Notes under the pieces: generated by a model
The model's input: the letters and a program-made list of their open reading frames with translations, nothing else
Databases searched by the model: none
Told to the model about the DNA's origin: nothing
Position numbers and translations under genes: made by a program
Shown here: piece after piece, positions 43,902-61,060 of the stretch
Layout of the letters: the number at the start of each line of letters is the position of its first letter
How positions within the stretch are numbered: position 1 is the first letter of the stretch
Origin: a virus
Length of the DNA: 64,000 nucleotides
Virus record (IMG/VR): IMGVR_UViG_3300038696_000205
Coordinates: 55,323 to 119,322 of that record
Strand: one strand, 5' to 3'

Positions 43902-43976
43902 TGGAGCGGAAAATGAGATTCGAACTCACAACCTTTGAATCGGCAATCCAATACTCTACCGTTGAGCTACTTCCGC
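43902..43976 (-). tRNA. tRNA-Gly(GCC)
   Basis: Full cloverleaf, loop TT-GCC-GA, encoded CCA. Confidence 0.92.
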
Positions 43977-43986
43977 ATTATTTATT

Positions 43987-44634
43987 CTAATAGCTTTTAC
44001 CCCCTTTATATCTTTCTCTCCTACTGTACCTACCATTACCACTATTTAACGCTTTATAAGTAGGGGTCAATGAATGACAATTAGGGCAAAGTAATTTTAA
44101 ATTATCTAATGAATTATTACTTGAGTTACCATCAATATGTTCTAATTCAATTGGCACCTTACCACTATGGGGGTTAACTTCACGCCAACCACAACCCATA
44201 CATTTTTTACCATTCTTATAAATTAAATATTTTCTATATTGCCCGACAAATAATGTAGTATCACCTTCTTCAATTTTTTCAAATATTATTTTTCTATTAT
44301 AATTTTGCTGACAAGTATTATCGCAAAATTTATTTAATACTAAATTGCCACAACCCAAACATTCATTAAGTGATTTTAACCTTAACTTATTATTATAAGT
44401 CGCACTACAAGAACGTGAACAAAATTTTTCACCTTTATTTTTTATTTCATTTCCACATTTAATGCAAATTTTAGATTCTTTAAATTTGTATTTGGATAAT
44501 GTTTCACCCATCTTACCTAATTTATTTCTAATTGCATTATTACCCCTTCCCGTTATTTCACTTATTTCATCGTAAGTTTTACCCTCTTTAAGTAATTTAA
44601 TACTAAATTTAATTTCCTTTTTACACCATTTCAT
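43987..44634 (-). CDS. HNH homing endonuclease
   Basis: ELEHIDGNSSNN...LLCPNCHS; zinc-ribbon repeats. Confidence 0.88.
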   Translation of the reverse strand: MKWCKKEIKFSIKLLKEGKTYDEISEITGRGNNAIRNKLGKMGETLSKYKFKESKICIKCGNEIKNKGEKFCSRSCSATYNNKLRLKSLNECLGCGNLVLNKFCDNTCQQNYNRKIIFEKIEEGDTTLFVGQYRKYLIYKNGKKCMGCGWREVNPHSGKVPIELEHIDGNSSNNSLDNLKLLCPNCHSLTPTYKALNSGNGRYSRRERYKGGKSY

Positions 44635-44695
44635 ATTTTATATATAATAAAATGAGCGGAAAAGTCAAGTCGAAATTATAATTAATTTCATTTTG

Positions 44696-44767
44696 AGCAC
44701 AAAATCAGATTCGAACTGATGACTAAGCTTTACAAGGGCCTTATTTTTCCAACTAAACTATGTGTGC
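44696..44767 (-). tRNA. tRNA-Thr(TGT)
   Basis: Cloverleaf, loop CT-TGT-AA. Confidence 0.8.
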
Positions 44768-44817
44768 ATTTATAGTCTTTCCTATCGTCAACCTTTGAAA
44801 GAGTAGTTATCTCCTAG

Positions 44818-44890
44818 TGCGAAAGAAGAGATTCGAACTCTCACTGTGGACTTGGAAGGCCCCTGTGCTAACCGTTAACACCACTCTCGC
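44818..44890 (-). tRNA. tRNA-Gly(TCC)
   Basis: Cloverleaf, loop CT-TCC-AA. Confidence 0.88.
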
Positions 44891-44972
44891 AATTTATGTG
44901 TCTCTCCACATCGTCACCCATTCCTTGAATTTCAACCACGCACAGTTATAGGTATCCTTGCGCTAATATTAA

Positions 44973-45431
44973 TTAATTTATATATTTACCATAATTTTTA
45001 CCAGCGTATGTATCAGTTTGAGAATGACAATTAGGACATAAAAAACGTAAATTATTTAACCGATTATCGTTTCTAATACCATTTATGTGGTCTAACTGTA
45101 ATTTTATTACTCTATCCATCCACTCACCTTCGTTACCACACCCACAACATTTATATTCTACTATATTTTCACTTATAATTCTTTTCTTTAAACTAGTGTT
45201 ATTAGTGTATTTTGAATCTTTAACTAAAATTTCAACCATTGGTGTTTTATTTTTAACATTCCTCAAATGTTTACTATTCAACCTTAGCATATGGTCAACA
45301 TTCAACCCCTCATTATCAATACGCTCTTTAATGCTTTTATGTATTGCACCACTTTTATTTTTATACCCTAATTTACGTAAAATATCCGTAATAGAATCAC
45401 TATTTTTCACTAACTTTTTAAACTCACTCAA
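44973..45431 (-). CDS. HNH homing endonuclease
   Basis: LQLDHINGIRNDNRLNNLRFLCPNCHS. Confidence 0.88.
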   Translation of the reverse strand: MSEFKKLVKNSDSITDILRKLGYKNKSGAIHKSIKERIDNEGLNVDHMLRLNSKHLRNVKNKTPMVEILVKDSKYTNNTSLKKRIISENIVEYKCCGCGNEGEWMDRVIKLQLDHINGIRNDNRLNNLRFLCPNCHSQTDTYAGKNYGKYIN

Positions 45432-45520
45432 TTCAATAGAATTAATTCTATTTTTTTTTTAACATTTTTAATATTTAATTATAAATATGATAATAAAAGT
45501 AAAAGACCTAATATCTTATA

Positions 45521-45561
45521 CTTTACAGTCCCGCTGCCGTATCCGAACGACTTTCACCCCC
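45521..45561 (-). pseudogene. 5' half of tRNA-Tyr(GTA)
   Basis: GGGGTGAAAGTCGTTCGGATACGGCAGCGGGA-CT-GTA-AA, then sequence switches to the HNH upstream region; no 3' half seen. Confidence 0.6.
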
Positions 45562-45568
45562 AATTTAG

Positions 45569-45640
45569 TACCCCCAGAGAATTTTGAAATCTCGACTCCC
45601 CCGTTAAAAGCGGGGTGCTCTGCCTCTGAGCTATGAGGGC
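45569..45640 (-). tRNA. tRNA-Lys(TTT)
   Basis: CCCCG-CT-TTT-AA-CGGGG. Confidence 0.88.
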
Positions 45641-45722
45641 GTTTTGAATGTGTCCACTTTCCACCTATCGGGTCTTTCACCTGTCAAAACGGGTGGTGCG
45701 TTACACATTCAATTTTTATTTG

Positions 45723-45793
45723 AGCACAATGTGGGAATCAAACCCCGTCCTCTGCTTGGAAGGCAAATGCTTTATCATTAAGCTACATCATGC
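45723..45793 (-). tRNA. tRNA-Gly(TCC)
   Basis: TTTGC-CT-TCC-AA-GCAGA. Confidence 0.85.
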
Positions 45794-45911
45794 ATTAAAT
45801 GATTTCAATAAATAGATGTATCATGAATTTACTATTTATTTCAAACGCAACTATCCCAAGTCTCACCGAGGCGTTACAGACGTGCTTGTACATTGCACGA
45901 ATAATCATTTG

Positions 45912-45982
45912 AACCACCACACGGAAACGAGCCGAGATTTTATCCCTACCAAGGACACGTAATACCATTATACCATGGCGGC
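45912..45982 (-). tRNA. tRNA-Thr(GGT), degenerate T-loop
   Basis: TGTCC-TT-GGT-AG-GGATA; T-loop CTCGTTT. Confidence 0.65.
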
Positions 45983-45989
45983 AATTTGT

Positions 45990-46075
45990 TGGGTAATGAG
46001 GATTTGAACCTCTCAGTCAATAAACAACACCCTTACGTATGGTGCTATCGATTCACACATCGATTAGTTACCTGT
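45990..46075 (-). ncRNA. tRNA-like RNA with palindromic D-arm and 9-nt anticodon loop
   Basis: T-arm GAGG-TTCAAAT-CCTC; partial acceptor pairing GGTAA/TTACC. Confidence 0.4.
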
Positions 46076-46114
46076 GATAGTTTTTATTAAGTTCAGTTCT
46101 ATCAACTGACACAG

Positions 46115-46189
46115 TTCCCCCAGTCGGGTTCGAACCGACATTGATGCCTAGTTAAAAGCTAGGTGCTTTACCCAGTCAGCCATGGGGGA
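46115..46189 (-). tRNA. tRNA-Lys(TTT)
   Basis: CCTAG-CT-TTT-AA-CTAGG. Confidence 0.9.
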
Positions 46190-46195
46190 ATATTG

Positions 46196-46277
46196 TGGGG
46201 GTAGAGGGATTCGAACCCCCAATGTCGTAAGACCACAGATTTACAGTCTGCTGAGCAACCAGTTGCTCAATACCCCC
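46196..46277 (-). tRNA. tRNA-Tyr(GTA)
   Basis: GCAGA-CT-GTA-AA-TCTGT, long variable arm. Confidence 0.92.
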
Positions 46278-46286
46278 ATTAATTTG

Positions 46287-46357
46287 TCGATAGACCAAGA
46301 ATCGAACTCAGTCCTTAACCCCCAATGGGTCACATGCTTTCATTACACCATCTACCG
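46287..46357 (-). tRNA. atypical tRNA: Pro-type acceptor (C1:G72, A73), loop CA-TTG-GG
   Basis: Well-formed cloverleaf with A33. Confidence 0.6.
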
Positions 46358-46361
46358 TTAG

Positions 46362-46435
46362 TTGGGGTGGAGGGATTTGAACCCCCAATCTGAAATGGCT
46401 CAAAACCACCCGTAATACCATTATACCACACCCCA
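46362..46435 (-). tRNA. tRNA-Gln(TTG)
   Basis: U1:A72; GGTGG-TT-TTG-AG-CCATT. Confidence 0.88.
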
Positions 46436-46444
46436 ATATACTTG

Positions 46445-46515
46445 TTACTCCACCAAGGTTCGAACTTGGGATACGAGAATCAAAATCTCGTGTCTTACCA
46501 CTACACCATGGAGCA
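46445..46515 (-). tRNA. tRNA-Gln(TTG)
   Basis: U1:A72; CGAGA-TT-TTG-AT-TCTCG. Confidence 0.9.
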
Positions 46516-46523
46516 AAAACTTG

Positions 46524-46597
46524 TAAGGAGAATGGGATTCGAACCCACGACCTCGCCCGTCCAAGGGGCGTAAACAACCTGACCGTTATCTCTCCTT
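46524..46597 (-). tRNA. tRNA-Pro(TGG)
   Basis: CGCCC-CT-TGG-AC-GGGCG; atypical A1:U72. Confidence 0.85.
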
Positions 46598-46659
46598 ATA
46601 TAAACTTTTATTAATAATAAAACTAATAGTACCTTTAGATGATATATTATGTTTATCCA

Positions 46660-46911
46660 TTATTTCACTATATGTCTTACCACAATCCCCCCTTCAAATA
46701 TCTTATCTCCAAATTTCTGATAAGCTTGTAGTCTATGGGTCATTACAACTGACCTTAAACCTTTATATCTTATCGTAAAAAAATGATACCCACCAGTACT
46801 TATAGTATTCCTTGATAATTCATGTCCACGCAATCCAATAACATTACCCTTACTTGTGACCCTGTAACCTTTTTTATGTGCTTCTTTTAAAATCAATGAC
46901 ATTCCATTCAT
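46660..46911 (-). pseudogene. truncated HNH endonuclease
   Basis: THRLQA...VVRH, then a stop before the Asn/His of the HNH motif. Confidence 0.6.
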
Positions 46912-46943
46912 ATTATTCCTTATTTTTATTAACTTTCGGGCAT

Positions 46944-46981
46944 AAAAAAAGCCCAGTTAAAATCGGTTGATTAAACTGGGC
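46944..46981 (-). terminator. attenuator terminator C
   Basis: GCCCAGTT-loop-AACTGGGC-TTTTTTT. Confidence 0.9.
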
Positions 46982-47010
46982 CTGTTGTATTAGATTTAAG
47001 TATATGTATC

Positions 47011-47121
47011 TTATATTCCTGTTTCGGTTTTAGATGACGTTATACACAACATTCCCAGTCTGCTCGGCTTTTGGCCTTGCGGATACTGCTTCCCTTGATA
47101 TGTAGTTGTATAATTTTTCAT
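47011..47121 (-). CDS. leader peptide C (36 aa) MKNYTTTYQGKQYPQGQKPSRLGMLCITSSKTETGI
   Basis: Hand translation; A-rich start; residues 4-19 only Y/T/Q/G/K/P. Confidence 0.85.
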   Translation of the reverse strand: MKNYTTTYQGKQYPQGQKPSRLGMLCITSSKTETGI

Positions 47122-47139
47122 CTTATTTTTCTTTGTGGG

Positions 47140-47175
47140 TTTTAACCCTTTGTTATTAAATATACACAAATATAC
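47140..47175 (-). promoter_or_regulatory. promoter of leader C (TATATTTG + TATATTTAATAACAAAGGGTTAAA)
   Basis: Near-identical block upstream of leader A (61025-61060). Confidence 0.7.
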
Positions 47176-47303
47176 TAAAAAGTACATTAATGTGCAACTA
47201 TTTTTATTATTTTTTTTTAATTAACTGATAATCAGTTATTTTTATAATTCAGAATGGTCTTTTTTCTACATTTGAGAGTTTAGATGCTGAAATCATTCTT
47301 TAG

Positions 47304-47372
47304 TCAGGCCAGGAGAATCGACACTCCATCTTCATCCCCAATGGATGATATCTTCAATTAGACCATGGCCCG
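47304..47372 (-). tRNA. atypical tRNA: Pro-type acceptor (C1:G72, A73), loop CA-TTG-GG
   Basis: TCATC-CATTGGG-GATGA. Confidence 0.55.
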
Positions 47373-47378
47373 TTGCAG

Positions 47379-47443
47379 TTGAACTAGTGGGATTCGATAC
47401 CACATTACCTAATTAAGGTGACTTCAATTAGTCGATAGTTCAA
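47379..47443 (-). ncRNA. reduced tRNA-like RNA (short anticodon arm)
   Basis: Acceptor TTGAACT/AGTTCAA, D- and T-arm-like hairpins, ACCT-TAATT-AGGT. Confidence 0.4.
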
Positions 47444-47444
47444 G

Positions 47445-48235
47445 ATGAATGCTTGAGTGGTGGGCATATATGTTAAAATTTAATAGGGTTTCCCCTCTTA
47501 CACACACCTTTCATTTCTGTCAGGTAGTCAACATTAAGGTAGCATTAGAGTTGCTATTACTCACTACACACGTTAATATAAACTTTCTTCAACACCCAGT
47601 CTCCTTGCGAGAGTTCAGAGGGGCAAACCTCTTACTAATGACATTTACTAGAAGTTTCAGTCTTGGCCTTGTGAGCTTACTAACTGCCTATATATTTCAA
47701 TAGGATAACTTAATTTTCAACGTATGTTCAACAGAACTTTTACTTTTGTTATCATTTAAAGATATTTTTTTGTTATTCTCTTAAATCCAGGATGTGTCTG
47801 TTGATTGACAATCGTACTACCTTTTGAGTAGGTTAGATTACGACACCCCAATGTACCTTTTTACAGCTACGTCAATAAATTCACTTCAAACCTTATTGTA
47901 AGCCCCAACCGAAGTCAGGTAACTTACTAGTTATCCCATGAACTTTCATGATGAATTAAGCCTCTAGGATTTTTAATCCCCTTGACCCAATTCTAACTAT
48001 TCATTTATTTGTATTTCTACATCAACACCCAACGAGAAAATTGAATGTAGCACCTCCGAGCAGTGCTCTCTTAGTGCCGTAAATAGCTTGCTTACACGGA
48101 TTACATAAATGTAACGCAATAGCTGTTTCCGAAACTACTGCTTTATCCCATCACTGGATTATCCTTAATTACCCGAAGGTAAATGGAGCATAAGCACCCC
48201 AATTTTTTAATATTTTAAAGAACGTTTGTTTTTTA
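47445..48235 (-). ncRNA. large (~0.8 kb) structured ncRNA, GOLLD-like candidate
   Basis: No credible ORF, raised GC, many hairpins, own TATATTTG promoter at ~48243, lies among tRNAs; family not verified. Confidence 0.55.
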
Positions 48236-48296
48236 TTACTCTGCAAATATACTACTTTAATTTGATACTTGCAAGATTTTTTTAAAAAACTTTTTG

Positions 48297-48365
48297 TAGA
48301 GTCAGAAGATTTGATACTTCATTTCCAAGCTTCACGCCAGGTGTCCTAACTTAGATGATAACTCC
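48297..48365 (-). pseudogene. degenerate tRNA (anticodon TGA or GTG, uncertain)
   Basis: Acceptor GGAGTTA/TGACTCT; weak anticodon and T arms. Confidence 0.4.
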
Positions 48366-48407
48366 GTTTTTAATACTCGACAAATATAATACTTTATTTT
48401 TAAATAG

Positions 48408-48740
48408 TCAAGCTTTTTTGAAAATATTTTTAATAAAAATAAAAATCCTTTCTTTTAATGATGCTTTATATAATTTATACTCTTCATCTTGGATACTATA
48501 ATTAGTGTCGTACTTTTTAATATACAGTAAACTTTTTCGTTTTCTGAATACACTTAGGTATTCGTAATTTTCACTAACTTCAAAAGTTTCTACCCATTCA
48601 TTGATTAGATTTATTTGAAGGTCTATATCTAGGTTGAGCTTATTAACTTCAAACTCAAACTTTAAAAGTAAAGCCTTTATTTGGTCGTTAACTAAATCAT
48701 CCTTTGAATATCTTATGTATTTGTATTTATTTAAATTCAT
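48408..48740 (-). CDS. hypothetical protein
   Basis: ORF track. Confidence 0.55.
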   Translation of the reverse strand: MNLNKYKYIRYSKDDLVNDQIKALLLKFEFEVNKLNLDIDLQINLINEWVETFEVSENYEYLSVFRKRKSLLYIKKYDTNYSIQDEEYKLYKASLKERIFIFIKNIFKKA

Positions 48741-48789
48741 AATACAAATATAATAATTTTTAATTCAATAAACAAGTTATAAATAACTT

Positions 48790-49266
48790 TTATTTGATTT
48801 TATTTCTGGCACCTAACTTAAAGACATACTCGAATAACTTATCAAAACGATTGTATAAGAAATTCATTATATCATTTAATAAGTCGGATAATACCCAGTT
48901 AATAAATGATAATGGAAAGAGAACCCACCATTTAATTATTTTATCTTTTATACCATATTTTTTATTATCAAAATCTTTTTTACTGGTTATTTTATTACCA
49001 TGAAAATATGTTCTAATCAGGGCATAAATAAATCCAATAATTAAATAGTATAAAAGATACCAAGGACTAAATGATTCCCTTATATCAAAATTAGAACCAC
49101 CTTGTATAAGTACTAAATACCCCAAAATTATAAATATTAACCAGAACCAACTATTATGTTTTTCACTAATTAGTAATACTATGGCCGAACCCACTGTGAG
49201 AAACCAAAAATTTAAAATACTCCCAAATAATGTAAACCCCACTAATATTTCTAAAAAATTTTCCAT
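48790..49266 (-). CDS. hypothetical membrane protein
   Basis: Hydrophobic segments. Confidence 0.7.
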   Translation of the reverse strand: MENFLEILVGFTLFGSILNFWFLTVGSAIVLLISEKHNSWFWLIFIILGYLVLIQGGSNFDIRESFSPWYLLYYLIIGFIYALIRTYFHGNKITSKKDFDNKKYGIKDKIIKWWVLFPLSFINWVLSDLLNDIMNFLYNRFDKLFEYVFKLGARNKIK

Positions 49267-49291
49267 ATTTATTTAAGTTAATTTTAAAATG

Positions 49292-49420
49292 ATTGACATA
49301 CAGAGGCCACACGGGGTCCAAACATTAGGCTTTTTATTAATCCACCTCACATCATTGCTGACGGGTCTCATTTCCGTATCTTTTCCTAACTTACAACCTT
49401 TTACGCATGTATGTCAAATC
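49292..49420 (-). ncRNA. putative structured RNA closed by TTGACATAC/GTATGTCAA
   Basis: 9-bp terminal inverted repeat around a GC-richer core. Confidence 0.4.
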
Positions 49421-49511
49421 ATTAAGCTAATTGGTATTTTTCGGTAGCAGAAATTATCTTTAAATAATCTCCCCCTTACTCATATTTAGCAAAAGAGTCA
49501 CTTCTTATTGG

Positions 49512-49599
49512 TTGGATTGTTAGGACTCGAACCTACGACCTTGGTTACTCCAACCGTAATCGGATGTTTTACCACGCTCTCCCACTGAGCTACAACCCA
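49512..49599 (-). ncRNA. tRNA-like RNA with enlarged anticodon arm
   Basis: Normal acceptor, D and T arms; TGGT-(25 nt)-ACCA. Confidence 0.55.
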
Positions 49600-49617
49600 A
49601 TATTAAACTAATACTTG

Positions 49618-49689
49618 TTATCTAGGTTGGGTTCGAACCAACAACCGAGCAGACAATGCCACCCACTCTACCAATTGAGCTACTAGATA
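49618..49689 (-). tRNA. atypical tRNA, loop CA-TTG-TC
   Basis: Perfect acceptor TATCTAG/CTAGATA, normal D and T arms, weak anticodon stem. Confidence 0.5.
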
Positions 49690-49695
49690 ATTTTG

Positions 49696-49769
49696 TGGTG
49701 GAGACTCGATTCGAACGAGTGACACCAAGGCGTTCGGTCCCTGTGCTCTACCAACTGAGCTACCCCACC
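49696..49769 (-). tRNA. tRNA-Phe-like (GAA) with irregular 8-nt loop ACCGAACG
   Basis: Phe-like body GGTGGGG/CTCCACC. Confidence 0.55.
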
Positions 49770-49779
49770 ATTAAATTAG

Positions 49780-49866
49780 CACGGAACAATCAGATTCGAA
49801 CTGACATCTTAGCCATAGCTAAAAGCTTCGATTCATTTATAGCTATACCAATGAATCATATTCCGT
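49780..49866 (-). ncRNA. tRNA-like RNA with extended D-stem
   Basis: Acceptor ACGGAAT/GTTCCGT, GATTCAT/ATGAATC 7-bp D-stem, canonical T-arm. Confidence 0.45.
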
Positions 49867-49879
49867 ATTTTGATAATCA

Positions 49880-49996
49880 GAATGGACTATTACGGGCTCT
49901 ATCCAGTTGAGCTATAAGGTAGTCAAACTACCCTAGTAGGATTCGAACCTACAACCACGAGCTTACAAGGCTTAGTTTTTATTGCTGGAGCCATTC
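49880..49996 (-). tRNA. circularly permuted tRNA gene (anticodon TGT, Arg-like body)
   Basis: 3' half 49928-49972 precedes 5' half 49893-49921; 6-nt linker; enclosing stem GAATGG/CCATTC with CAGCAA. Confidence 0.7.
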
Positions 49997-50029
49997 TTTA
50001 ATATCATCAATATGTCAATAATTAATTAC

Positions 50030-55139: not shown

Positions 55140-55203
55140 ATCTTTGTATTTTTATAATTAAATACAAAGATAATATAAATATTTCAATAAAGCAAGTATT
55201 TTT

Positions 55204-55241
55204 GAGATATAGTAGGAATCGAATCCTAATAAACCCATCTC
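55204..55241 (-). ncRNA. tRNA minihelix-like remnant (acceptor + T-arm)
   Basis: GAGATGG...TAGGA-TTCGATT-CCTA...ATATCTC. Confidence 0.35.
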
Positions 55242-55254
55242 AGTGCAAATTTTG

Positions 55255-55393
55255 TGGAGACGACAGGGTTCGAACCTGTGGCGCACCCTTCCTTCTAGGC
55301 CGCTCTACCTTAAGGTTAATTAATACCAATTTTATAGTTTTATGTACAATCATTCTATAAAATTCTCTATGCGACCCTCTGAGCTACATCTCC
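55255..55393 (-). pseudogene. tRNA-like gene with ~70-nt D-loop insertion and degenerate anticodon arm
   Basis: GGAGATG/CGTCTCC, GCTC...GAGC split by an AT-rich insert, canonical T-arm. Confidence 0.5.
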
Positions 55394-55412
55394 GTTTTTA
55401 ATCTTAATCTAG

Positions 55413-55484
55413 TAACCCCAACGGGATTCGAACCCGTGACTTCACCGTGAAAGGGTGATGACTTAACCGCTTGTCGATAGGGCT
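55413..55484 (-). tRNA. tRNA-Glu(TTC)
   Basis: TCACC-CT-TTC-AC-GGTGA. Confidence 0.92.
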
Positions 55485-55618
55485 AGTTGGGTAGAATCAT
55501 GATGCACCATGTCTACCGTGTCCAAGTTGCATGTTCTAAAACTTCACAGAACAGAGGCTTACTTGACCCAATTATTTATTATGATACAAATATAACACTT
55601 TTATTTAACCTAATTATT

Positions 55619-56251
55619 TTAAATTATTTTTCTGCCCAATCTCCAACCATCTGGTATTAAATCACCTTTCATTATCTTTTTACTCTCGATTTCATTGGTT
55701 ATCCAACATGTACCAAATTGAGAATTTATCCCCCCCTTACCTTGGCCAGTCTTGATTTTACTAATTTTTAATTTAGTTTCTTCAGAATGTTGTTTACCAG
55801 TGAAAGTATCATATTTAATTTTACCATTTTTGTGATTATCTTTCATAGTGTTAGATGATATTTTACTAATTTTAGCTCTGTGGTCCAAGTCATTTTTTAA
55901 TTTTAAAGCATTTGCTAAACCACCAGCCTTTGAACATCTAAAATGATGGTCATCTAACATGAATCCTCCCCCACCAACAACTAAATTCATACAATCAATC
56001 TTAACTACCTCATTTAGAGTGACTAATTCCTCTTCTCGTTTCTTTAATTCTTCCCTAGAAACACAATATTCAAGTATTTCTCTAATAAAATTCTCTTTAC
56101 CATGTTTTCTTACAGCTAACCTTAATCTATTTCCACTACCTAAATAACCATCATCTAAATTTGATGTACTATGCATCCCTATATAATAACGACCACTTAA
56201 TACATTTGTGGTCTTATATATGAAATGATATTTTTTTTCTTTTCTCGCCAT
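55619..56251 (-). CDS. GIY-YIG (Seg-like) homing endonuclease with NUMOD3
   Basis: FIYKTTN...YYIGMH...YLGSG; HSEETKLKIS. Confidence 0.88.
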   Translation of the reverse strand: MARKEKKYHFIYKTTNVLSGRYYIGMHSTSNLDDGYLGSGNRLRLAVRKHGKENFIREILEYCVSREELKKREEELVTLNEVVKIDCMNLVVGGGGFMLDDHHFRCSKAGGLANALKLKNDLDHRAKISKISSNTMKDNHKNGKIKYDTFTGKQHSEETKLKISKIKTGQGKGGINSQFGTCWITNEIESKKIMKGDLIPDGWRLGRKII

Positions 56252-56311
56252 ATCTATATCTTTTTAATATAAATATCCAGAAAAACGTTAAAGTACAAAA
56301 ACGTGTCCAGG

Positions 56312-56386
56312 CGGTTTAGACGGGACTCGAACCCGCAAATCTCGCACCGTGACAGGGTGGAACATACGCCAATATGCTGCTAAACC
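56312..56386 (-). tRNA. tRNA-Asp(GTC)
   Basis: CCACC-CT-GTC-AC-GGTGC, G73. Confidence 0.9.
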
Positions 56387-56414
56387 GTTTAATAGTCTTT
56401 CCTATTAGTCTTTG

Positions 56415-56487
56415 TACTCCCGAAGGGAATCGAACCCTCATTTGGTGATAGAAAGTCACCCGTACTGAGCCATTATACGACAGGAGC
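56415..56487 (-). tRNA. tRNA-Glu(TTC)
   Basis: GGTGA-CT-TTC-TA-TCACC. Confidence 0.9.
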
Positions 56488-56491
56488 AAAT

Positions 56492-56566
56492 TGGTGGGGA
56501 GAGAGGGAGTCGAACCCTCGACGCTTGCCGCTTCAAGACAACGCTCTACCACTGAGCTACCTCCCC
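56492..56566 (-). tRNA. tRNA-Phe(GAA)
   Basis: TTGTC-TT-GAA-GC-GGCAA, encoded CCA. Confidence 0.92.
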
Positions 56567-56605
56567 AATTATAATACTAACAAAATGTCAAAAAACTATT
56601 TCCAG

Positions 56606-56679
56606 TGGAGGTAAACGGTATCGAACCGTCCTCAGGTTGGTTGCAAACCAATCTCGCCTTGCCTTGGACATGTACCCCC
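56606..56679 (-). tRNA. tRNA-Ala(TGC)
   Basis: G3:U70; TTGG-TT-TGC-AA-CCAA. Confidence 0.88.
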
Positions 56680-56692
56680 AATTATTAATAAC

Positions 56693-56722
56693 AAAAAAGC
56701 CCGAATCTTTCGAGTCGGGCTT
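56693..56722 (-). terminator. attenuator terminator B
   Basis: AAGCCCGACTC-GAAA-GATTCGGGC-TTTTTT. Confidence 0.9.
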
Positions 56723-56749
56723 GCTATTTAGTTTAGTTGTTATGAACAC

Positions 56750-56839
56750 TTAACTTATATCAATACTCGACCTTCCCAGGCTAAAATCCGCCTCGGCTGC
56801 TTCTATAGCAAAATCAAATATGTTGTTAAATGTTTTCAT
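56750..56839 (-). CDS. leader peptide B (29 aa) MKTFNNIFDFAIEAAEADFSLGRSSIDIS
   Basis: Hand translation; residues 8-19 are 11/12 F/D/A/E. Confidence 0.85.
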   Translation of the reverse strand: MKTFNNIFDFAIEAAEADFSLGRSSIDIS

Positions 56840-57103
56840 AATTTCTATTATTTATTCGTTAATGGATATTAATATCCTTTTTAATTAAATATGTGCTTTT
56901 TCTTTAAAAGTACATTTATTTTTTAATACACTGCAAATATACTACATTAAAATGTAATAATCAAGCTTTTTTGAAATTATTTTTAATTTATTTCAATGCT
57001 CTAATAAGAAGTTTGGATGTTGTCCAAGTTAATTCTCCGTTTGTTTCCATTTCCACTTCGGCAGAGTCTATGATTCTATTAATTTGTTTTTCCGATAATT
57101 CCT

Positions 57104-57379
57104 TCATTTTCTGATTTTAATTTCTTTTGCATTGGTATAGTCTACGACAACTAACTCACCAGAGTTATTTACGTGTGGCTTTTGCTCCACTTCATCTAAG
57201 TTAACCTCAACACCTCTTTCATTTAAAATTTCAAGACAAACCTTTTCGATTTCAGCCTTATCACTTCTATCACACTTATTAGCGTAATCTATAATGTTAA
57301 TCAAGTGGTCACTTTCCAATTCGCTTAACGGGGCAACGTTACCTTCGTAATTCTGCCATAATGTATCTTTTGTTATCAT
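57104..57379 (-). CDS. hypothetical protein
   Basis: ORF track; promoter at ~57398. Confidence 0.65.
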   Translation of the reverse strand: MITKDTLWQNYEGNVAPLSELESDHLINIIDYANKCDRSDKAEIEKVCLEILNERGVEVNLDEVEQKPHVNNSGELVVVDYTNAKEIKIRK

Positions 57380-57622
57380 ACTATTTTATTTTATACTGCA
57401 AATATACATCAAATAAATGTAACTCACAAGTTTTTTTATTTAAAATTCTATTTTAACTGGAAATTTATCCCCATCATCACCATAATACCATGTATCAAAA
57501 CTATCAACCAACCTTGTTGCGATTTGCTCGTTGGTCCATGAGGACCTGATATCAAAACCATCGGATACTGATTCAATAAAGTTTAAATAAACGGTAAAAC
57601 CAAATAATTTTGAATAAAGTTT

Positions 57623-58189
57623 TTACATATTGTACTCTACAAAACGTTTTAGGTCATTGTAACCCAACTTACTGATACCGTTTGGATATCCAACAGCCAT
57701 AAGGTCTTGGTTCAATTCATCGTAGTCCATGTCCTTGAACTGGTTTACATATTCTAAGAACTCATCATTGTTCAAGTGTTTAATCTTAACAACTGGAATA
57801 AGACTACAATCGTTCATCATTGCCGCCATAGCTCTGTGTCTACCTTCCTGACTTGAGTTATCGTGAGTGTAGAAACCAACTGGGGCCTTCTCACCGTTTC
57901 TCATTCTCTCGGCATACTTAGCAGCTCTTTCCTTATCATAACCACCACCTAAGGCATCCTCATAAGATATTCCGAAACCGTTTGCTATTCTATATATGTA
58001 TTGTTTTGGTGATATGTATTCAATGATACCAACCCTTCTTTTAGCCACAATGGAGTAAAGTGGTTTTTCAATTTCAATATAATCGTTTACTGTGTTCATA
58101 TCAAAGTACTTACAACAGTCACAATCGTTTGACAGGTTTTCCCTGATTAACTTTTTAATTAATGTTTTTGTTTCTGATAGCTGTTTCAT
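57623..58189 (-). CDS. ParB/Srx-like domain protein
   Basis: QEGRHRAMAA motif. Confidence 0.55.
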   Translation of the reverse strand: MKQLSETKTLIKKLIRENLSNDCDCCKYFDMNTVNDYIEIEKPLYSIVAKRRVGIIEYISPKQYIYRIANGFGISYEDALGGGYDKERAAKYAERMRNGEKAPVGFYTHDNSSQEGRHRAMAAMMNDCSLIPVVKIKHLNNDEFLEYVNQFKDMDYDELNQDLMAVGYPNGISKLGYNDLKRFVEYNM

Positions 58190-58193
58190 ATTT

Positions 58194-58862
58194 TTAAGAA
58201 TAATATGAGGTATATGTATTTTTATCTAATCCATAATCTATTATTACAATAGTATCTTCACCATTTCTTTGTACAATACCATATGAATTTAATCTAACTA
58301 AATCGCCAACGGGTAAGTCGTAATTACCCACATAATCCAAAATACCGCTAACAAACTCATCGTCCCACATGGCATCAGATAATTCTGGGTCTACCTTAGG
58401 ATATGTGGGTCTAGGTTTATCCCTATCACTATAACTAAGTAATAGTGTTGAGTAATCTTTGAAATCAAAACCAGTTATACGTTTAAAATCACTAATTCTA
58501 ACCTTTCTAGCTAATTCCATTTCACTCCATAAGTTATCTGGGTGATAATCAAATACCCGTGCGACCACATCTTCTATATCGTTATATCGTGAATGCGATA
58601 TTTCTATTTCGTTCTGGGCCAGACCTTTTGAGTTCTTAGCTAATTTTAAAACTTTTTCATCATCTATTTTATATACTATTCTAGCTGAACCAGATGATAT
58701 TCTCTGTAAATTTTCTTGACAATATCTTATCCTAGCATTAAAAGAGTTTAGTTTTTTAAACTCATCCATATTAAAGCTAGATGGGTAATCTTCACCTATC
58801 ATGTTTTCTAGTACTTCAAAAACCAAGGATTCACTTAGTAACTTTTTTATATTATCTTTCAT
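58194..58862 (-). CDS. protein-kinase-like fold protein
   Basis: GSARIVY, VLKLA, NEIE, GDL...NSYG, IIDYG. Confidence 0.65.
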   Translation of the reverse strand: MKDNIKKLLSESLVFEVLENMIGEDYPSSFNMDEFKKLNSFNARIRYCQENLQRISSGSARIVYKIDDEKVLKLAKNSKGLAQNEIEISHSRYNDIEDVVARVFDYHPDNLWSEMELARKVRISDFKRITGFDFKDYSTLLLSYSDRDKPRPTYPKVDPELSDAMWDDEFVSGILDYVGNYDLPVGDLVRLNSYGIVQRNGEDTIVIIDYGLDKNTYTSYYS

Positions 58863-59265
58863 ATAAATTAGATTCTTTGAGCAATTTTATAATTATTGAT
58901 TTACCCTCACCTATATCCAACATAAATTTTGAATTAGGAAATAATACTATTTCCCCAGTGCCATACTTTTTATCTCTAGTTATAATTGAATCATAACCTT
59001 GTGACATTAATTTTTTAGTTAAATTTGCACCCTTTGCCTTAAATTTAGTGGATAAATCCATCTTATAGTCAATTGGGTTATTGTATTCATCTAAGTCAAT
59101 GTATAATGGTTTGGTTAAATTGGCCATACCACCTATCCAACCTGGAAATAGTTTGATGTTTCGGTCCCATTCTAACACATATGTACCCTTAGGTTCCACA
59201 TCCTGTCCAAATTCGGAACCGTGGTATTCAGCGGCTTCCATATTTTTCATTATACTTAACTGCAT
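58852..59265 (-). CDS. ADP-ribosyltransferase-like small protein
   Basis: YHGS ... GYDSII ... EIVLF pattern. Confidence 0.45.
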   Translation of the reverse strand: MQLSIMKNMEAAEYHGSEFGQDVEPKGTYVLEWDRNIKLFPGWIGGMANLTKPLYIDLDEYNNPIDYKMDLSTKFKAKGANLTKKLMSQGYDSIITRDKKYGTGEIVLFPNSKFMLDIGEGKSIIIKLLKESNLYER

Positions 59266-59326
59266 TTGTTTTATTTATAAATACTTTATAAAACAAAAAA
59301 GGCTGGTAAATACCAACCTTTTAATG

Positions 59327-59409
59327 TAACTCAGAAGGGATTCGAACCCTTAAAGGTCTGGCCTTCTTAGGGCCAATGCTCTGCCATTCGCTTTTTTACC
59401 CACTGAGCA
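59327..59409 (-). tRNA. atypical tRNA-Leu(AAG) with D-arm insertion and short variable loop
   Basis: TGGCC-CT-AAG-AA-GGCCA; GTAAAAAA inserted before the D-stem. Confidence 0.65.
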
Positions 59410-59417
59410 ATATAACA

Positions 59418-59501
59418 GGATGAGATTGTTAGTGGGTTTGAACCACCGAAAATAGAGTATAAGTCTAGTTTTTTATCCGTTTTCTTTTGCTGTAATCATC
59501 C
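59418..59501 (-). ncRNA. stem+CAGCAA module with anticodon arm (TAT) and T-arm only
   Basis: GGATGA-TTA-CAGCAA...TAGA-CT-TAT-AC-TCTA...GGTGG-TTCAAAC-CCAC...TCATCC. Confidence 0.55.
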
Positions 59502-59505
59502 TTTG

Positions 59506-59556
59506 TAACCTAGGTGAGATTCGAACTCACACGCCCTTTCGAGCATTGGTTTCTTA
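59506..59556 (-). pseudogene. 3' half of a tRNA-Leu
   Basis: TAA-GA-AACCAAT, long variable arm GCTC-GAAA-GGGC, T-arm, CTAGGTT; TAA is also the HNH stop. Confidence 0.65.
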
Positions 59557-60003
59557 TTTATTATAGTTTCCTTTATTTTTACCAGAATTATTTTCTGTTA
59601 ATGAATGACAATTAGGACATAAAATCTGTAAATTAGTAAAATTATTGTTATATTTATTACCATCAATGTGGTGTAATTCTATAGGTATTAATTTACCCAT
59701 CCACATATGTAAGTCACAATTTTCACATTTATGTTTTTTTACATTATCTTCTATTAACTTATTTTTTAATAAATTACTTTTAACACATGTTGACTTTGAA
59801 TATTCTAGAGCTGTTTTTCTATCGTTACTAATTTTAATATTTTTACCACCTTTATTACCACCATAAATAATACCCATTTTATCTAAATAAGAATTTAATG
59901 TTTCTGGTTTACACTTTAATTCTCTACATATAAACGCTTTAGATTGATTAATATCAATCCACCCATTAATTTCATCTTTTCTTTCTAATATATCTATTCT
60001 CAT
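59554..60003 (-). CDS. HNH homing endonuclease
   Basis: IELHHIDGNKYNN...ILCPNCHS. Confidence 0.88.
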   Translation of the reverse strand: MRIDILERKDEINGWIDINQSKAFICRELKCKPETLNSYLDKMGIIYGGNKGGKNIKISNDRKTALEYSKSTCVKSNLLKNKLIEDNVKKHKCENCDLHMWMGKLIPIELHHIDGNKYNNNFTNLQILCPNCHSLTENNSGKNKGNYNK

Positions 60004-60057
60004 ATTAATAAATACGGTACACATTAATGAAAGGCTACTTTAGTGTATAATAATTTG

Positions 60058-60140
60058 TAACTCAGAAGGGATTCGAACCCTTAAAGGTCTGGCCTTCTAA
60101 GGACCAATGCTCTGCCGTTCGCTTTTTTACCCACTGAGCT
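60058..60140 (-). tRNA. atypical tRNA-Leu(TAG), paralog of 59327..59409
   Basis: TGGTC-CT-TAG-AA-GGCCA; same GTAAAAAA insertion. Confidence 0.65.
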
Positions 60141-60148
60141 ATTTTAAA

Positions 60149-60174
60149 CGTGTCTACCATTCCACCACTAAGCC
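60149..60174 (-). pseudogene. 5' half of a tRNA-Leu
   Basis: GGCTTAG-TG-GTGGAATGGTAGACACG; acceptor strand pairs with CTAGGTT of the 59506 half. Confidence 0.6.
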
Positions 60175-60182
60175 ATAATATG

Positions 60183-60268
60183 TGGGCCAGAAGGGAGTCG
60201 AACCCTCACGCCCCTTACGAGGCACAGGGGCTTAAACCCTGTGTGTCTACCAGTTCCACCACTAGGGC
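60183..60268 (-). tRNA. tRNA-Leu(TAA), acceptor stem with two mismatches
   Basis: CAGGG-TT-TAA-GC-CCCTG; near-duplicate of 60600..60685. Confidence 0.7.
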
Positions 60269-60522
60269 AATTTGTGGGGGTTAACCCCACTGTTTATTTT
60301 TATAATTCTTCCAGTTATCATCTATACCATATTTCTTTCCATTACACCCTTTATTAGGTGGACAAAAATCACAGTGTAAATGTACTTTTCTCATAGTCAT
60401 TTTATACACACGACTATCTGTTGTGTTTTCGACAATTATTTTGTGTCTTCCCATAGTTTTGATGTGCTTTTATTTGCACTAACCAAAACCGTAAATTTTT
60501 ACATACATAATCATTAATTTTG

Positions 60523-60593
60523 TACCCCCAAACAGATTCGAACTGCTGACTCTTGCATGTAAGGCAAGGATGTTCCCATTACACTATAGGGGC
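60523..60593 (-). tRNA. tRNA-Val(TAC)
   Basis: CTTGC-CT-TAC-AT-GCAAG. Confidence 0.88.
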
Positions 60594-60599
60594 AATTTG

Positions 60600-60685
60600 T
60601 GGGCCAAGAGGGATTCGAACCCTCACGCCCCTTACGGAGCACAGGGGCTTAAACCCTGCGTGTCTACCAGTTCCACCACTGGCCC
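60600..60685 (-). tRNA. tRNA-Leu(TAA)
   Basis: Full cloverleaf with long variable arm. Confidence 0.92.
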
Positions 60686-60691
60686 AATTTG

Positions 60692-60766
60692 TACCTTTAG
60701 AGGGAGTCGAACCCCCGACCTTCACCTTGTAAAAATGTTGCTCTAAACCAACTGAGCTATAAAGGT
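60692..60766 (-). tRNA. tRNA-Val(TAC)
   Basis: Loop TT-TAC-AA; perfect acceptor. Confidence 0.82.
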
Positions 60767-60779
60767 ATTTCACTATTTG

Positions 60780-60862
60780 AGCCTAATGTTGGATTCGAAC
60801 CAACGTGAGATTTCTCTAGCGGTTTTGCAGACCGCCCCATTCGGCCACTCTGGCAATTAGGC
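60780..60862 (-). tRNA. tRNA-Cys(GCA) with long variable arm
   Basis: GCGGT-CT-GCA-AA-ACCGC, U73. Confidence 0.88.
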
Positions 60863-60863
60863 A

Positions 60864-60897
60864 TAAAAAAAGTCCGATGCTTTACAGTATCGGACTT
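60864..60897 (-). terminator. attenuator terminator A
   Basis: AAGTCCGAT-loop-ATCGGACT-TTTTTT. Confidence 0.9.
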
Positions 60898-60919
60898 TGT
60901 ATATTAATTAAAATTTAGT

Positions 60920-61003
60920 TCAATTAATTCCACAGCCCGACACGCTCACTAAGACTAGTAAACATAAACAAAGGACAGATAGTATGTTATTAATTGTTTT
61001 CAT
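60920..61003 (-). CDS. leader peptide A (27 aa) MKTINNILSVLCLCLLVLVSVSGCGIN
   Basis: Hand translation; residues 8-19 are 11/12 L/V/C. Confidence 0.82.
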   Translation of the reverse strand: MKTINNILSVLCLCLLVLVSVSGCGIN

Positions 61004-61024
61004 TTTTATTTTTATTTTATTAAA

Positions 61025-61060
61025 GGTTTAACCCTTTGTTATTAAATATAAGCAAATATA
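61025..61060 (-). promoter_or_regulatory. promoter of leader A (TATATTTG + TATATTTAATAACAAAGGGTTAAA)
   Basis: Shared with leader C upstream region. Confidence 0.7.

Follow-up and report, generated by a model that had tools for sequence, protein, structure and literature searches.

Enterobacterial leader peptides such as trpL, hisL, pheL and pheM (of pheST) control transcription by attenuation, and multivalent versions exist in thrL, with Thr and Ile codons, and in the ilvGMEDA leader, with Ile, Leu and Val codons. To our knowledge, all ribosome-mediated attenuators described so far regulate genes of amino-acid biosynthesis, amino-acid transport or aminoacyl-tRNA synthetases. In the Firmicutes, T-box riboswitches sense uncharged tRNA through a specifier codon, and we know of no T-box that regulates tRNA genes in this way. 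A regulated tRNA array is found in Anabaena sp. PCC 7120, whose trn operon (L-array) is silent and becomes induced under translational stress (PMC8421152). The operon is repressed by the RHH protein TrcR, a type of repression in which the protein binds 9-nt direct repeats, arranged in tandem, that cover the -10 box and the start site (PMC10272220). In Flavobacterium, amino-acid operons have been inferred to be controlled by leader-peptide attenuation (PMC9723704), which makes its use in the host plausible. No description of tRNA genes controlled by leader-peptide attenuation was found in the literature.

Here we analyse a window of 64 kb, the whole stretch of viral DNA under study, taken from a 119-kb contig. 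Its minus strand carries three paralogous units, one located 5' of each tRNA array, which most likely represent ribosome-dependent leader-peptide transcription attenuators gating phage tRNA operons, although both the translation of the leaders and the regulated read-through are inferred from sequence.

Anatomy of the three units and their arrays

The units share one order, in which a Bacteroidota-type promoter is followed by an ORF of 27-36 codons, an intrinsic terminator and the tRNA genes:

61053..61083, minus strand: promoter of unit A, TTGACT-N19-TATATTTG, Bacteroidota type (pattern scan)
61022..61037, minus strand: 5'-UTR hairpin of unit A, AAAGG-GTTAAA-CCTTT, within the 23-nt motif ATATTTAATAACAAAGGGTTAAA
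60920..61003, minus strand: leader ORF A, MKTINNILSVLCLCLLVLVSVSGCGIN, 27 codons and TGA
60863..60898, minus strand: intrinsic terminator/attenuator A, AAAGUCCGAU...AUCGGACUUU and U7, hairpin of -14.0 kcal/mol
56934..56964, minus strand: promoter of unit B (pattern scan)
56750..56839, minus strand: leader ORF B, MKTFNNIFDFAIEAAEADFSLGRSSIDIS, 29 codons and TAA
56691..56722, minus strand: intrinsic terminator/attenuator B, AAGCCCGA...UCGGGCUU and U6, hairpin of -14.5 kcal/mol
47167..47197, minus strand: promoter of unit C (pattern scan)
47011..47121, minus strand: leader ORF C, MKNYTTTYQGKQYPQGQKPSRLGMLCITSSKTETGI, 36 codons and TAA
46944..46982, minus strand: intrinsic terminator/attenuator C, GGCCCAGUU...AACUGGGCU and U7, hairpin of -16.2 kcal/mol

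A promoter of the form TTG-N19-TAnnTTTG precedes every leader ORF, at 61083 (A), 56964 (B) and 47197 (C), and a pattern scan revealed a strong enrichment of this motif on the minus strand of the window. A copy of the -7 box is present in A and C and decayed in the promoter of unit B. The 23-nt motif around the 5'-UTR hairpin of unit A is common to unit C, and a hairpin is kept at this position in both B and C with a different sequence. All leader ORFs start with ATG in an A-rich upstream context, 35-95 nt past the promoter, and show a conserved ATG-AAA-ACA start from which the frame runs through to the stop codon. A blind scan of the 119-kb contig for a promoter, a small ORF and a terminator recovered the three units and one unrelated membrane peptide. 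The arrays behind the terminators consist of tRNA genes with homing endonucleases inserted:

59297..60862, minus strand: array A, with Cys(GCA), Val(UAC), Leu(UAA), Val(UAC), a 57-codon ORF and Leu(UAA), then four further elements
3' part of array A, minus strand: atypical Leu(UAG)-like gene, HNH endonuclease, atypical Leu(AAG)-like gene and operon-end terminator (59322-59297)
55413..56679, minus strand: array B, with atypical Ala(UGC), Phe(GAA), Glu(UUC), Asp(GUC), a GIY-YIG endonuclease and Glu(UUC)
43877..46597, minus strand: array C, with Pro, Gln x3, Tyr, Lys, Thr(GGU), Gly(UCC), Lys, Gly(UCC), Thr(UGU) and Gly(GCC)
43902-43877, minus strand: operon-end terminator of array C

The Leu(UAG)- and Leu(AAG)-like genes were read via their anticodon loops as atypical tRNAs, with support from homology to phage phi38:1. 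The tRNA-Ala of array B (56679-~56606, UGC, G3:U70) is likewise atypical, found by ARAGORN at -ps85 and not called by ARAGORN at default settings or by Rfam. From the T-run to the first tRNA there are only 2 nt in A (tRNA-Cys) and 14 nt in B (tRNA-Ala), and since this leaves no space for a promoter, arrays A and B can be transcribed only via read-through. No promoter motif was detected by the pattern scan between terminator C and its array.

A first-pass annotation had pointed to three overlooked short ORFs at 61003, 56839 and 47121, which prove to be real, ATG-started and provided each with a promoter and a terminator; its placement of the arrays on the minus strand also agrees with the tRNA calls. 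The claim that each terminator is followed by an array holds for A, B and C, with the reservation that array C begins only ~350 nt later, past an 83-codon ORF.

Leader codons, array content and competing pairings

Each leader contains a central tract whose codons correspond to the tRNAs located downstream:

60982-60947, minus strand: sensor tract A, codons 8-19, L S V L C L C L L V L V, 11/12 L/V/C
56818-56783, minus strand: sensor tract B, codons 8-19, F D F A I E A A E A D F, 11/12 F/D/A/E
47112-47065, minus strand: sensor tract C, codons 4-19, Y T T T Y Q G K Q Y P Q G Q K P, 16/16 Y/T/Q/G/K/P

The earlier proposals that the central codons specify almost only amino acids of the downstream tRNAs, and that the sets do not overlap and end at the same codon, were thus confirmed in all three units: the sets are disjoint, every tract stops at codon 19 and is followed by AGC at codon 20, and no tract holds more than one residue from outside its set (Ser in A, Ile in B). 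When the leaders were scored against the arrays by their best in-set segment, the matrix was 10/0/2, 1/8/2 and 2/1/16, and each leader ranked first among the 755 small ATG ORFs of the 119-kb contig for the set of its own array. All 16 sensor codons of C are readable by array C anticodons. Elsewhere, some codons require four-way wobble by U34 (GUC by Val-UAC, GCU/GCC by Ala-UGC), and CUA and CUU need the atypical tRNAs.

The same architecture occurs in phi38:1, a cultured phage of Cellulophaga; between them, its three leaders and their arrays comprise all 20 amino acids. Its leader 1 (MKTIMNIATDIRTKGVK...) precedes Ala, Lys, Ile, Gly, Met, Asp, Thr, Val, Arg(UCU) and Ile; leader 2 (...TYNNFSWYSNCSFSSYN...) precedes Tyr, Ser, Ser, Asn, Trp, Phe and Cys; and leader 3 (...LLHQEPLEQLRLP...) precedes Pro, Glu, Gln, His, Leu, Leu and Arg(ACG). 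Even Arg is split by codon, with AGA in leader 1, for tRNA-Arg(UCU), and CGA in leader 3, for tRNA-Arg(ACG). Units 2 and 3 of this phage are nearly leaderless. More than 10 other viral contigs carry the device with the amino acids partitioned differently, as in L130 (leader SSSSRSRRSSSRRS, array of Ser x2 and Arg x3), L061 (S/R/L/T/C), L125 (Q/P/D) and L019 (L/A/D/C/V/F), and orthologs of leader B were found in L001, L032, L051, L099 and L244.

That leaders should track array content in related phages had been suggested beforehand, and this was borne out across 21 units taken together. The amino-acid-level match summed to 16.75 of 21, whereas none of 100,000 permutations exceeded 11.92, and under strict wobble the codon-level match reached 14.08 against a permutation maximum of 10.0 (0/100,000 reached the observed value). 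Some related units match poorly (L063, 0.17; L075, 0.33; L035, 0.42), the score of L035 resting on an incomplete locus. Between phi38:1 and L018, the tract of leader 1 shows five synonymous changes and one change within the set, and A-type and B-type orthologs exchange whole codons within their sets (E>F, A>E, C>L, L>V). Ortholog differences fall mainly at third codon positions, and set membership is conserved whereas peptide sequence is not. Such synonymous and within-set substitutions point to a selection, inferred from these alignments, on which codons occur and not on the peptide sequence.

Directly 3' of the sensor tract, across units, lies a strand with the potential to pair with the 5' arm of the terminator:

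60934..60943, minus strand: antiterminator 5' strand of A, GUGUCGGGCU, codons 21-24, partner AGUCCGAUAC, 10 bp
56761..56772, minus strand: candidate antiterminator strand of B, GGUCGAGUAUUG, codons 23-26, weak in this window
47054..47061, minus strand: antiterminator 5' strand of C, AGACUGGG, codons 21-23, partner CCCAGUUU, 8 bp

In the minimum-energy fold of unit A, which is the antiterminator, this strand forms 10 bp with 60896-60887; the duplex energy is -16.7, where shuffles average -6.7 (p=0.003). Read-through of A would therefore be expected in the absence of translation. The strand of C pairs within the 5' arm of its terminator (p=0.043 versus shuffles). For B the pairing in this window was not above chance, with only GGUCG:CGACU or UCGAGU:ACUCGA available (p=0.60 versus shuffles). 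The first-pass annotation had placed an antiterminator strand inside every leader, which thus stands for A and C but not for B here; the same strand position in B orthologs pairs well with their own, different terminators (L001, p=0.007; L099, p=0.003). Overall, the 3' part of the ORF pairs with the terminator 5' arm better than dinucleotide shuffles (p<=0.05) in 15 of 22 units. Moreover, the strand changes along with the terminator, as in GAGAGG:CCUCUU of phi38:1 versus GAAGGG:CCCUUC of L018, and in the B-type pairs GUCGAG:CUCGAU of L001 versus AAGUUGAGU:ACUCAACUU of L099.

A putative mechanism and its alternatives

These features would be compatible with the following sequence of events. Host RNA polymerase would initiate at the Bacteroidota-type promoter, and a ribosome would translate the short leader. 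When the sensor codons are decoded fast, the ribosome would traverse codons 21-28 up to the stop, covering or unwinding the antiterminator strand, so that the terminator hairpin forms and transcription halts just 5' of the first tRNA gene. Should a shortage of the cognate charged tRNA slow the decoding of any sensor codon, the ribosome would stall upstream, the strand at codons 21-24 would pair with the terminator 5' arm, and the polymerase would enter the array. As the array tRNAs read the sensor codons, their build-up would restore the speed of the leader and turn the array off; each unit would therefore be a separate negative-feedback loop on one tRNA subset. In short, the phage probably makes each tRNA block only when the matching codons are read slowly. 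The unit anatomy, the leader-array match, its co-variation across phages and the competing RNA pairings are direct observations, while leader translation, transcription-translation coupling and the direction and size of the response are inferred. The core of the initial interpretation, in which codon-matched stalling attenuators each gate their own array, finds its support in the comparison across phages and not in experiment. In addition, termination at unit A would need a tight timing between ribosome and polymerase, and such timing is uncharacterised in Bacteroidota. It also counts against the scheme that extra tRNA is no remedy where the amino acid, and not the tRNA, is short.

What makes decoding slow is a separate matter. 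Host anticodon nucleases of the PrrC, PARIS, retron or VapC type, the specific trigger proposed in the first-pass annotation, cut particular tRNAs, and the attenuators could serve chiefly as a counter-defence in which the matching sensor stalls and the lacking set alone is transcribed as a replacement, a possibility that we regard as doubtful. PrrC and T4 constitute an established precedent, and modular disjoint sensors would permit a set-specific response. One proposal in the literature is that phage tRNAs stand in for host tRNAs that have been cleaved, or evade the cleavage (PMC10264068). However, nothing in the sequence favours nucleases over phage mRNA demand, host tRNA loss or codon-usage mismatch, and the phi38:1 sensors, in spanning all 20 amino acids, look like a general supply control and not like a response to a few targeted tRNAs. 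Anticodon nucleases are thus one of several possible causes of slow decoding. A wider alternative, which we hold to be unlikely, is a general switch for translation stress or timing, where any slowing of ribosomes by amino-acid starvation, ribosome poisons or late-mRNA saturation leads to read-through and the codon match merely makes the leader as hard to read as the phage messages. The default fold of unit A, by which any failure of translation yields read-through, fits this possibility, as does the cellular precedent of the Anabaena trn array, induced whenever translation is impaired (PMC8421152, PMC10272220). Under such a switch, on the other hand, disjoint amino-acid sets per unit would be needless, and so would the AGA/CGA split of Arg between two phi38:1 units and the within-set substitutions of orthologs.

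Two further explanations dispense with stalling altogether. The small ORFs might be ordinary small-protein genes, or be untranslated, with leaky terminators and a coincidental or compositional match; leader A taken alone does resemble a lipoprotein signal peptide (a hydrophobic tract, then SGC), and the phi38:1 annotation places two leaders inside hypothetical proteins. But leaders B and C are not hydrophobic, the match was unreached in 100,000 permutations with every leader ranking first of 755, and sets are kept while the peptide drifts and antiterminator strands co-vary with terminators, so that this explanation is strongly disfavoured. Still less credible is a direct, ribosome-free sensing of tRNA by the leader RNA through T-box-like codon-anticodon contacts. 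The sensor codons are indeed complementary to the array anticodons, yet they stand in frame with the conserved ATG-AAA-ACA start and reach a stop codon, ortholog differences fall chiefly at third codon positions, about 40 nt cannot scaffold six to nine different tRNAs per leader, and Rfam gave no match to a T-box or other riboswitch in 40000-64000.

Returning to stalling attenuators, Bacteroidota phages likely carry a modular monitor of decoding capacity, where each leader is the codon roster of one tRNA operon, the speed of ribosomes on it would set the transcription of that operon, and tRNA homeostasis in infection would be kept set by set in a closed loop. This monitor may act as an inducible counter-measure against tRNA-cleaving host defences.

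Relation to described regulatory systems

As observed for the Anabaena trn operon, we find a supernumerary, horizontally mobile tRNA array that would stay off until translation is impaired, induction being inferred for the phage. Unlike the phage units, the Anabaena operon is controlled at the promoter by a repressor on direct repeats, and its response is global instead of specific for a codon set. The promoter type also differs, being Bacteroidota -7/-33 in the phage, so the TrcR system is a functional analogue only; the terms leader ORF, terminator and attenuator have zero occurrences in the Anabaena trn paper. With T-boxes, the units share a terminator/antiterminator decision that depends on tRNA status upstream of translation-related genes. 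T-boxes, in contrast, need no ribosome and use one tRNA per element on a structured scaffold. No T-box (Rfam RF00230) hit was obtained at E<=0.1 in 40000-64000, and no Rfam leader family matches the three units.

In form, the units resemble enterobacterial attenuators, which also have a short translated leader rich in regulatory codons (translation being inferred here), a terminator before the regulated genes, a competing antiterminator with its 5' strand in the last part of the ORF, a stalled ribosome that favours read-through (again inferred here) and, in some cases, several amino acids sensed by one leader. In contrast with them, the phage units lack an obvious 1:2 anti-antiterminator, so that untranslated unit A would read through where the trp leader terminates. 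The setting is that of Bacteroidota phages, and some units (phi38:1 units 2 and 3) have hardly any leader. The regulated genes encode tRNAs instead of biosynthetic enzymes or synthetases, and since this product reads the sensor codons, the feedback would be on decoding capacity and not on amino-acid supply; if true, this is the first case of leader-peptide attenuation governing tRNA genes. Finally, phage leaders list up to 6-9 amino acids, most of them only 1-4 times, and multiple units split the code within one phage genome, which, if the proposal is true, makes this the most highly multiplexed attenuator known, with up to 9 amino acids per leader and all 20 in the three leaders of phi38:1.

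Leader ORFs ahead of three tRNA arrays

The window makes up the right-hand 64 kb of one 119-kb contig; its G+C content is about 32%, and almost all of its genes are on the minus strand. A pattern scan found around 40 minus-strand copies of TTG-N19-TAnnTTTG ahead of genes; this element, the −33/−7 promoter of Bacteroidota, indicates that the contig belongs to a phage whose host is a member of the Bacteroidota. ARAGORN predicts 24 tRNA genes in the contig, every one of them on the minus strand at 43902-60862 of the window, and Rfam supplies a few further tRNAs, intron-bearing or odd. Stop-codon recoding was considered and rejected, since reading TAG as sense lengthened the ORFs of the contig no more than TGA did, and leader stop codons were therefore taken at face value.

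Three leader units, with their codon tracts and tRNA arrays
Unit A, minus strand: promoter 61083; ORF 61003-60920, 27 codons; codons 8-19 L S V L C L C L L V L V; array Cys, Val x2, Leu(UAA) x2, two atypical genes (loops UAG, AAG)
Unit B, minus strand: promoter 56964; ORF 56839-56750, 29 codons; codons 8-19 F D F A I E A A E A D F; array Ala(UGC), Phe, Glu, Asp, Glu
Unit C, minus strand: promoter 47197; ORF 47121-47011, 36 codons; codons 4-19 Y T T T Y Q G K Q Y P Q G Q K P; array Pro, Gln x3, Tyr, Lys x2, Thr x2, Gly x3

Upstream of the three main arrays, the minus strand shows a common design of promoter, small 5′ hairpin, ATG ORF, hairpin with U-run and tRNA genes. The three units can be taken as paralogous; a 23-nt 5′-UTR motif is common to A and C, the leader start MKT-x-NNI to A and B, and codon 20 is AGC in all three. 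Terminator strength was taken from RNAfold energies (−14.0, −14.5 and −16.2 kcal/mol for hairpins A, B and C) rather than from a simple terminator scan, which A and C escape with their loops of more than 8 nt. Between the T-run and the first tRNA lie 2 nt in A (tRNA-Cys) and 14 nt in B (tRNA-Ala), and in C an 83-codon ORF (46660-46911, minus strand), without Pfam match, separates the terminator from tRNA-Pro. No promoter motif was detected by pattern scan between terminator and array in any unit, so that the arrays appear transcribable solely by read-through. Rfam matched neither a leader family nor a T-box family here.

Each small ATG ORF of the contig (n = 755) was scored by its best run of residues from each array's amino-acid set, and every leader was the single top scorer for the set of its own array, with a leader-by-array matrix (rows A, B, C) of 10/0/2, 1/8/2 and 2/1/16. 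The first-pass annotation had proposed both the three units of ORF, terminator and tRNA array and the correspondence of leader codons with the amino acids of the downstream tRNAs; the former is borne out by the minus-strand reading and the latter by these ranks. Moreover, a blind scan of the contig for a promoter, a first small ORF and a strong terminator returned the three leaders plus one unrelated 41-residue membrane peptide. A signal-peptide role of leader A was rejected, given the hydrophilic character of B and C and the scrambled sequences of orthologs.

Pairing between leaders and terminators

In the minimum-energy fold of unit A, GUGUCGGGCU (codons 21-24) pairs with AGUCCGAUAC in the 5′ arm of the terminator, and in unit C, folded as the transcript up to emergence of the 3′ arm with a ribosome stalled in the sensor tract (the leader codons matching the array), AGACUGGG (codons 21-23) pairs with CCCAGUUU. 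An antiterminator strand had been claimed earlier for each leader; against dinucleotide shuffles the claim held for A (p = 0.003) and C (p = 0.043), and in B of this window a pairing of only 5-6 bp was not above chance (p = 0.60). A modelled ribosome stalled at codons 8-16 leaves the antiterminator strand free; placed at codons 24-28 or on the stop codon, it covers either this strand or the loop that needs closure.

Among the units collected here and in other genomes, the 3′ part of the ORF pairs with the terminator 5′ arm better than shuffles (p ≤ 0.05) in 15 of 22, always just after the tract. In homologous units with different terminators, changes in the leader match those in the terminator.

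Co-varying pairs of leader segment and terminator arm
phi38:1 (cultured Cellulophaga phage), unit 2: CGAGAGG with CCUCUUG
L018 (another viral contig), unit 2: ACGAAGGG with CCCUUCGU
L018, unit 3: UCGGGAGG with CCUUCCGA
L099 (another contig): UAAGUUGAGU with ACUCAACUU(A)

The near-identical viral contig L001 retains leaders A and B; its leader B is followed by a different terminator, which can nonetheless pair with that same segment of the leader. A metagenome contig (L233) carries a variant of the L001-type leader B that lacks 17 nt including the antiterminator strand and keeps the terminator; constitutive termination would be predicted for it, unless it is an assembly artefact.

Related units and atypical tRNAs

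A 5′-UTR motif scan of IMG/VR returned L001 as sole near-identical relative, and the same motif in metagenomes gave three more near-identical relatives in 118 mostly random matches. A wider search by the shared leader start, ATGAAAACA-N-TT-NNN-AAY-ATA, found further units with other amino-acid partitions, nearly all with a TAnnTTT[G/A] box upstream. Small ORFs starting MKT-x-x-NI, of a 13-residue type and a Lys/Arg-rich type of about 18 residues, also recur in viral contigs without tRNA genes nearby (L057, L068, L078, L080, L088, L103 and others; L050, L071, L072, L110).

Partitions in units found by the shared start (contig handles)
L130: SSSSRSRRSSSRRS; array Ser x2, Arg x3
L061: S/R/L/T/C
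L125: Q/P/D/K
L019: L/A/D/C/V/F
L032, L099: F/D/A/E
L035, L055: L/V/C
Three 51-codon leaders: arrays behind them long and mixed

Against deposited phages, blastn in distant mode revealed no close relatives, only tRNA and homing-endonuclease matches, including Cellulophaga phages. Through these matches we arrived at phi38:1, a phage cultured on Cellulophaga baltica, 72.5 kb in size, with three units of the same kind (NC_021796.1 30544-46628, our L015). The atypical tRNA-Ala served as a further search handle.

Leader tracts and arrays of phi38:1
Unit 1: A T D I R T K G V K; Ala, Lys, Ile, Gly, Met, Asp, Thr, Val, Arg(UCU), Ile(UAU)
Unit 2: Y N N F S W Y S N C S F S S Y N; Tyr, Ser, Ser, Asn, Trp, Phe, Cys
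Unit 3: L L H Q E P L E Q L R L P; Pro, Glu, Gln, His, Leu, Leu, Arg(ACG)

All 20 amino acids are represented across these units. Leader 1 uses the Arg codon AGA ahead of tRNA-Arg(UCU) and leader 3 uses CGA ahead of tRNA-Arg(ACG), a split indicating that the match extends beyond amino acids to codons. Over codons 1-20, leader 1 and its L018 counterpart differ at 12 nucleotide positions, of which 8 are third codon positions; the tract itself shows five synonymous changes and a single within-set change. In units 2 and 3 the −7 box lies just 4 nt ahead of the ATG, so these leaders may be leaderless mRNAs. The deposited CDS gp066 and gp070 begin at alternative starts further upstream and run across leaders 1 and 3, and the Ala, Tyr, Trp, Cys, Pro, Glu, Leu(UAG)-like and Ile(UAU) tRNAs are missing from the annotation. 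The RNA-seq paper on this phage (PMC5335546) has nothing on phage tRNA expression or leaders.

For statistics over 21 units the tract was set at residues 8-19, the frame that the first-pass annotation had fixed on the window. The summed in-set fraction was 16.75/21, and 100,000 permutations of the array assignments reached at most 11.92; at codon level with strict wobble the values were 14.08 and 10.0. Leader codons thus co-vary with array content in other phages, the match lying above every permutation, although these figures somewhat overstate significance because orthologous units, with about twelve distinct partitions among the 21, are not independent. Orthologs of the B and A types swap whole codons within the set (GAA>TTT, GCG>GAA, TGT>TTA), keeping composition and scrambling peptide order, which is what a roster of codons, and not a functional peptide, would predict.

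Atypical tRNAs and neighbouring elements of the window, all minus strand
56679-~56606: tRNA-Ala of array B, G3:U70, unusual D region
60146-60058 and 59423-59335: atypical Leu-like genes, anticodon loops UAG and AAG
59554-60024: free-standing homing-endonuclease-type gene in array A, HNH
55619-56251: free-standing homing-endonuclease-type gene in array B, GIY-YIG/SegE-like with NUMOD3
52959-53031: tRNA with anticodon CUA (amber-suppressor type)
55255-55393 and 49512-49599: tRNA matches with long insertions (139 and 88 nt), no leader unit
49893-49959: weak Y-RNA-like (YrlA) match, no leader unit, beside a "permuted tRNA" of the first-pass annotation
47450-47849: GOLLD-like RNA
62809-63927: TnpB/IS605 OrfB-type gene upstream of unit A (OrfB_IS605, Cas12f1-like TNB and HTH domains)

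ARAGORN detects the tRNA-Ala of array B under relaxed thresholds only. The atypical tRNA-Ala(UGC) family, with G3:U70 and a conserved D region CCAAGGCAAGGCGA, is common to the window phage, phi38:1 (L015 ~11222) and 8 other IMG/VR contigs (L016-L024), and is missed or misread by ARAGORN defaults and Rfam. In the Leu-like genes the D region is long and odd (GTAAAAAAG.GAA.GGCAGA) and the variable arm is short. Their homology to an unannotated phi38:1 gene (L015:8092-8005), with compensatory changes in acceptor and anticodon stems, led us to accept both as tRNA-like genes; their putative Leu identity is inferred from the anticodon alone. The tRNA(CUA) has its own promoter at 53088 and no leader ORF, which fits a sensor made of sense codons. 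The GOLLD-like match (Rfam RF02032, full model length, 57.6 bits, E 8.6e-13) falls far under the gathering score of 150 and lies just upstream of the unit C promoter, adjoining tRNA-like fragments.

Proposed mechanism and comparison with known systems

Altogether, the observation is confirmed and its interpretation as attenuators is supported. We regard it as likely, on comparative evidence and without read-level data, that classical ribosome-mediated attenuation gates each tRNA array. Fast decoding of the leader would result in termination ahead of the first tRNA, whereas slow decoding of any listed codon would let the antiterminator form and the polymerase read through; the newly made tRNAs would in turn speed leader decoding, closing a negative-feedback loop for each set.

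Candidate natural causes of slow decoding are the demand of phage messages, loss of host tRNAs during takeover and tRNA-cleaving defences. The last had been suggested earlier as the trigger, and we consider it unlikely to be the main purpose of the device. An untranslated unit A is predicted to read through, a difference from the trp leader, so any block of translation would also open this unit.

The regulation and purpose of phage tRNAs have been disputed for decades, with codon compensation, replacement of a degraded host pool and escape from anticodon nucleases all put forward. If the attenuator reading is true, phage tRNAs are made on demand, the phage gauges translation capacity per codon set, and the trp/his mechanism has been redirected to a novel class of target, the product of which has a direct effect on the sensor. 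The device would offer a natural, compact and multiplexed reporter of tRNA availability, and draws attention to many atypical tRNAs and unannotated small ORFs of phages. It is directly testable, since the cultured Cellulophaga baltica/phi38:1 pair carries three units.

Leader-peptide attenuation has been inferred for amino-acid operons of Flavobacterium (PMC9723704). The nearest published regulated extra tRNA array is the trn operon of Anabaena, which is induced under translational stress; control there is exerted by the promoter-bound repressor TrcR, and neither a leader nor a terminator nor an attenuator is mentioned (PMC8421152, PMC10272220). The full-text literature searched, which left subscription journals largely uncovered, gave no description of attenuation upstream of tRNA genes, so that publication is not excluded. 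The thrL and ilvGMEDA leaders are multivalent leader-peptide attenuators, and the phage units are like them in design, but differ in the regulated genes, which are tRNAs, in the breadth of the sensor and in the splitting of the code over several units in one phage.
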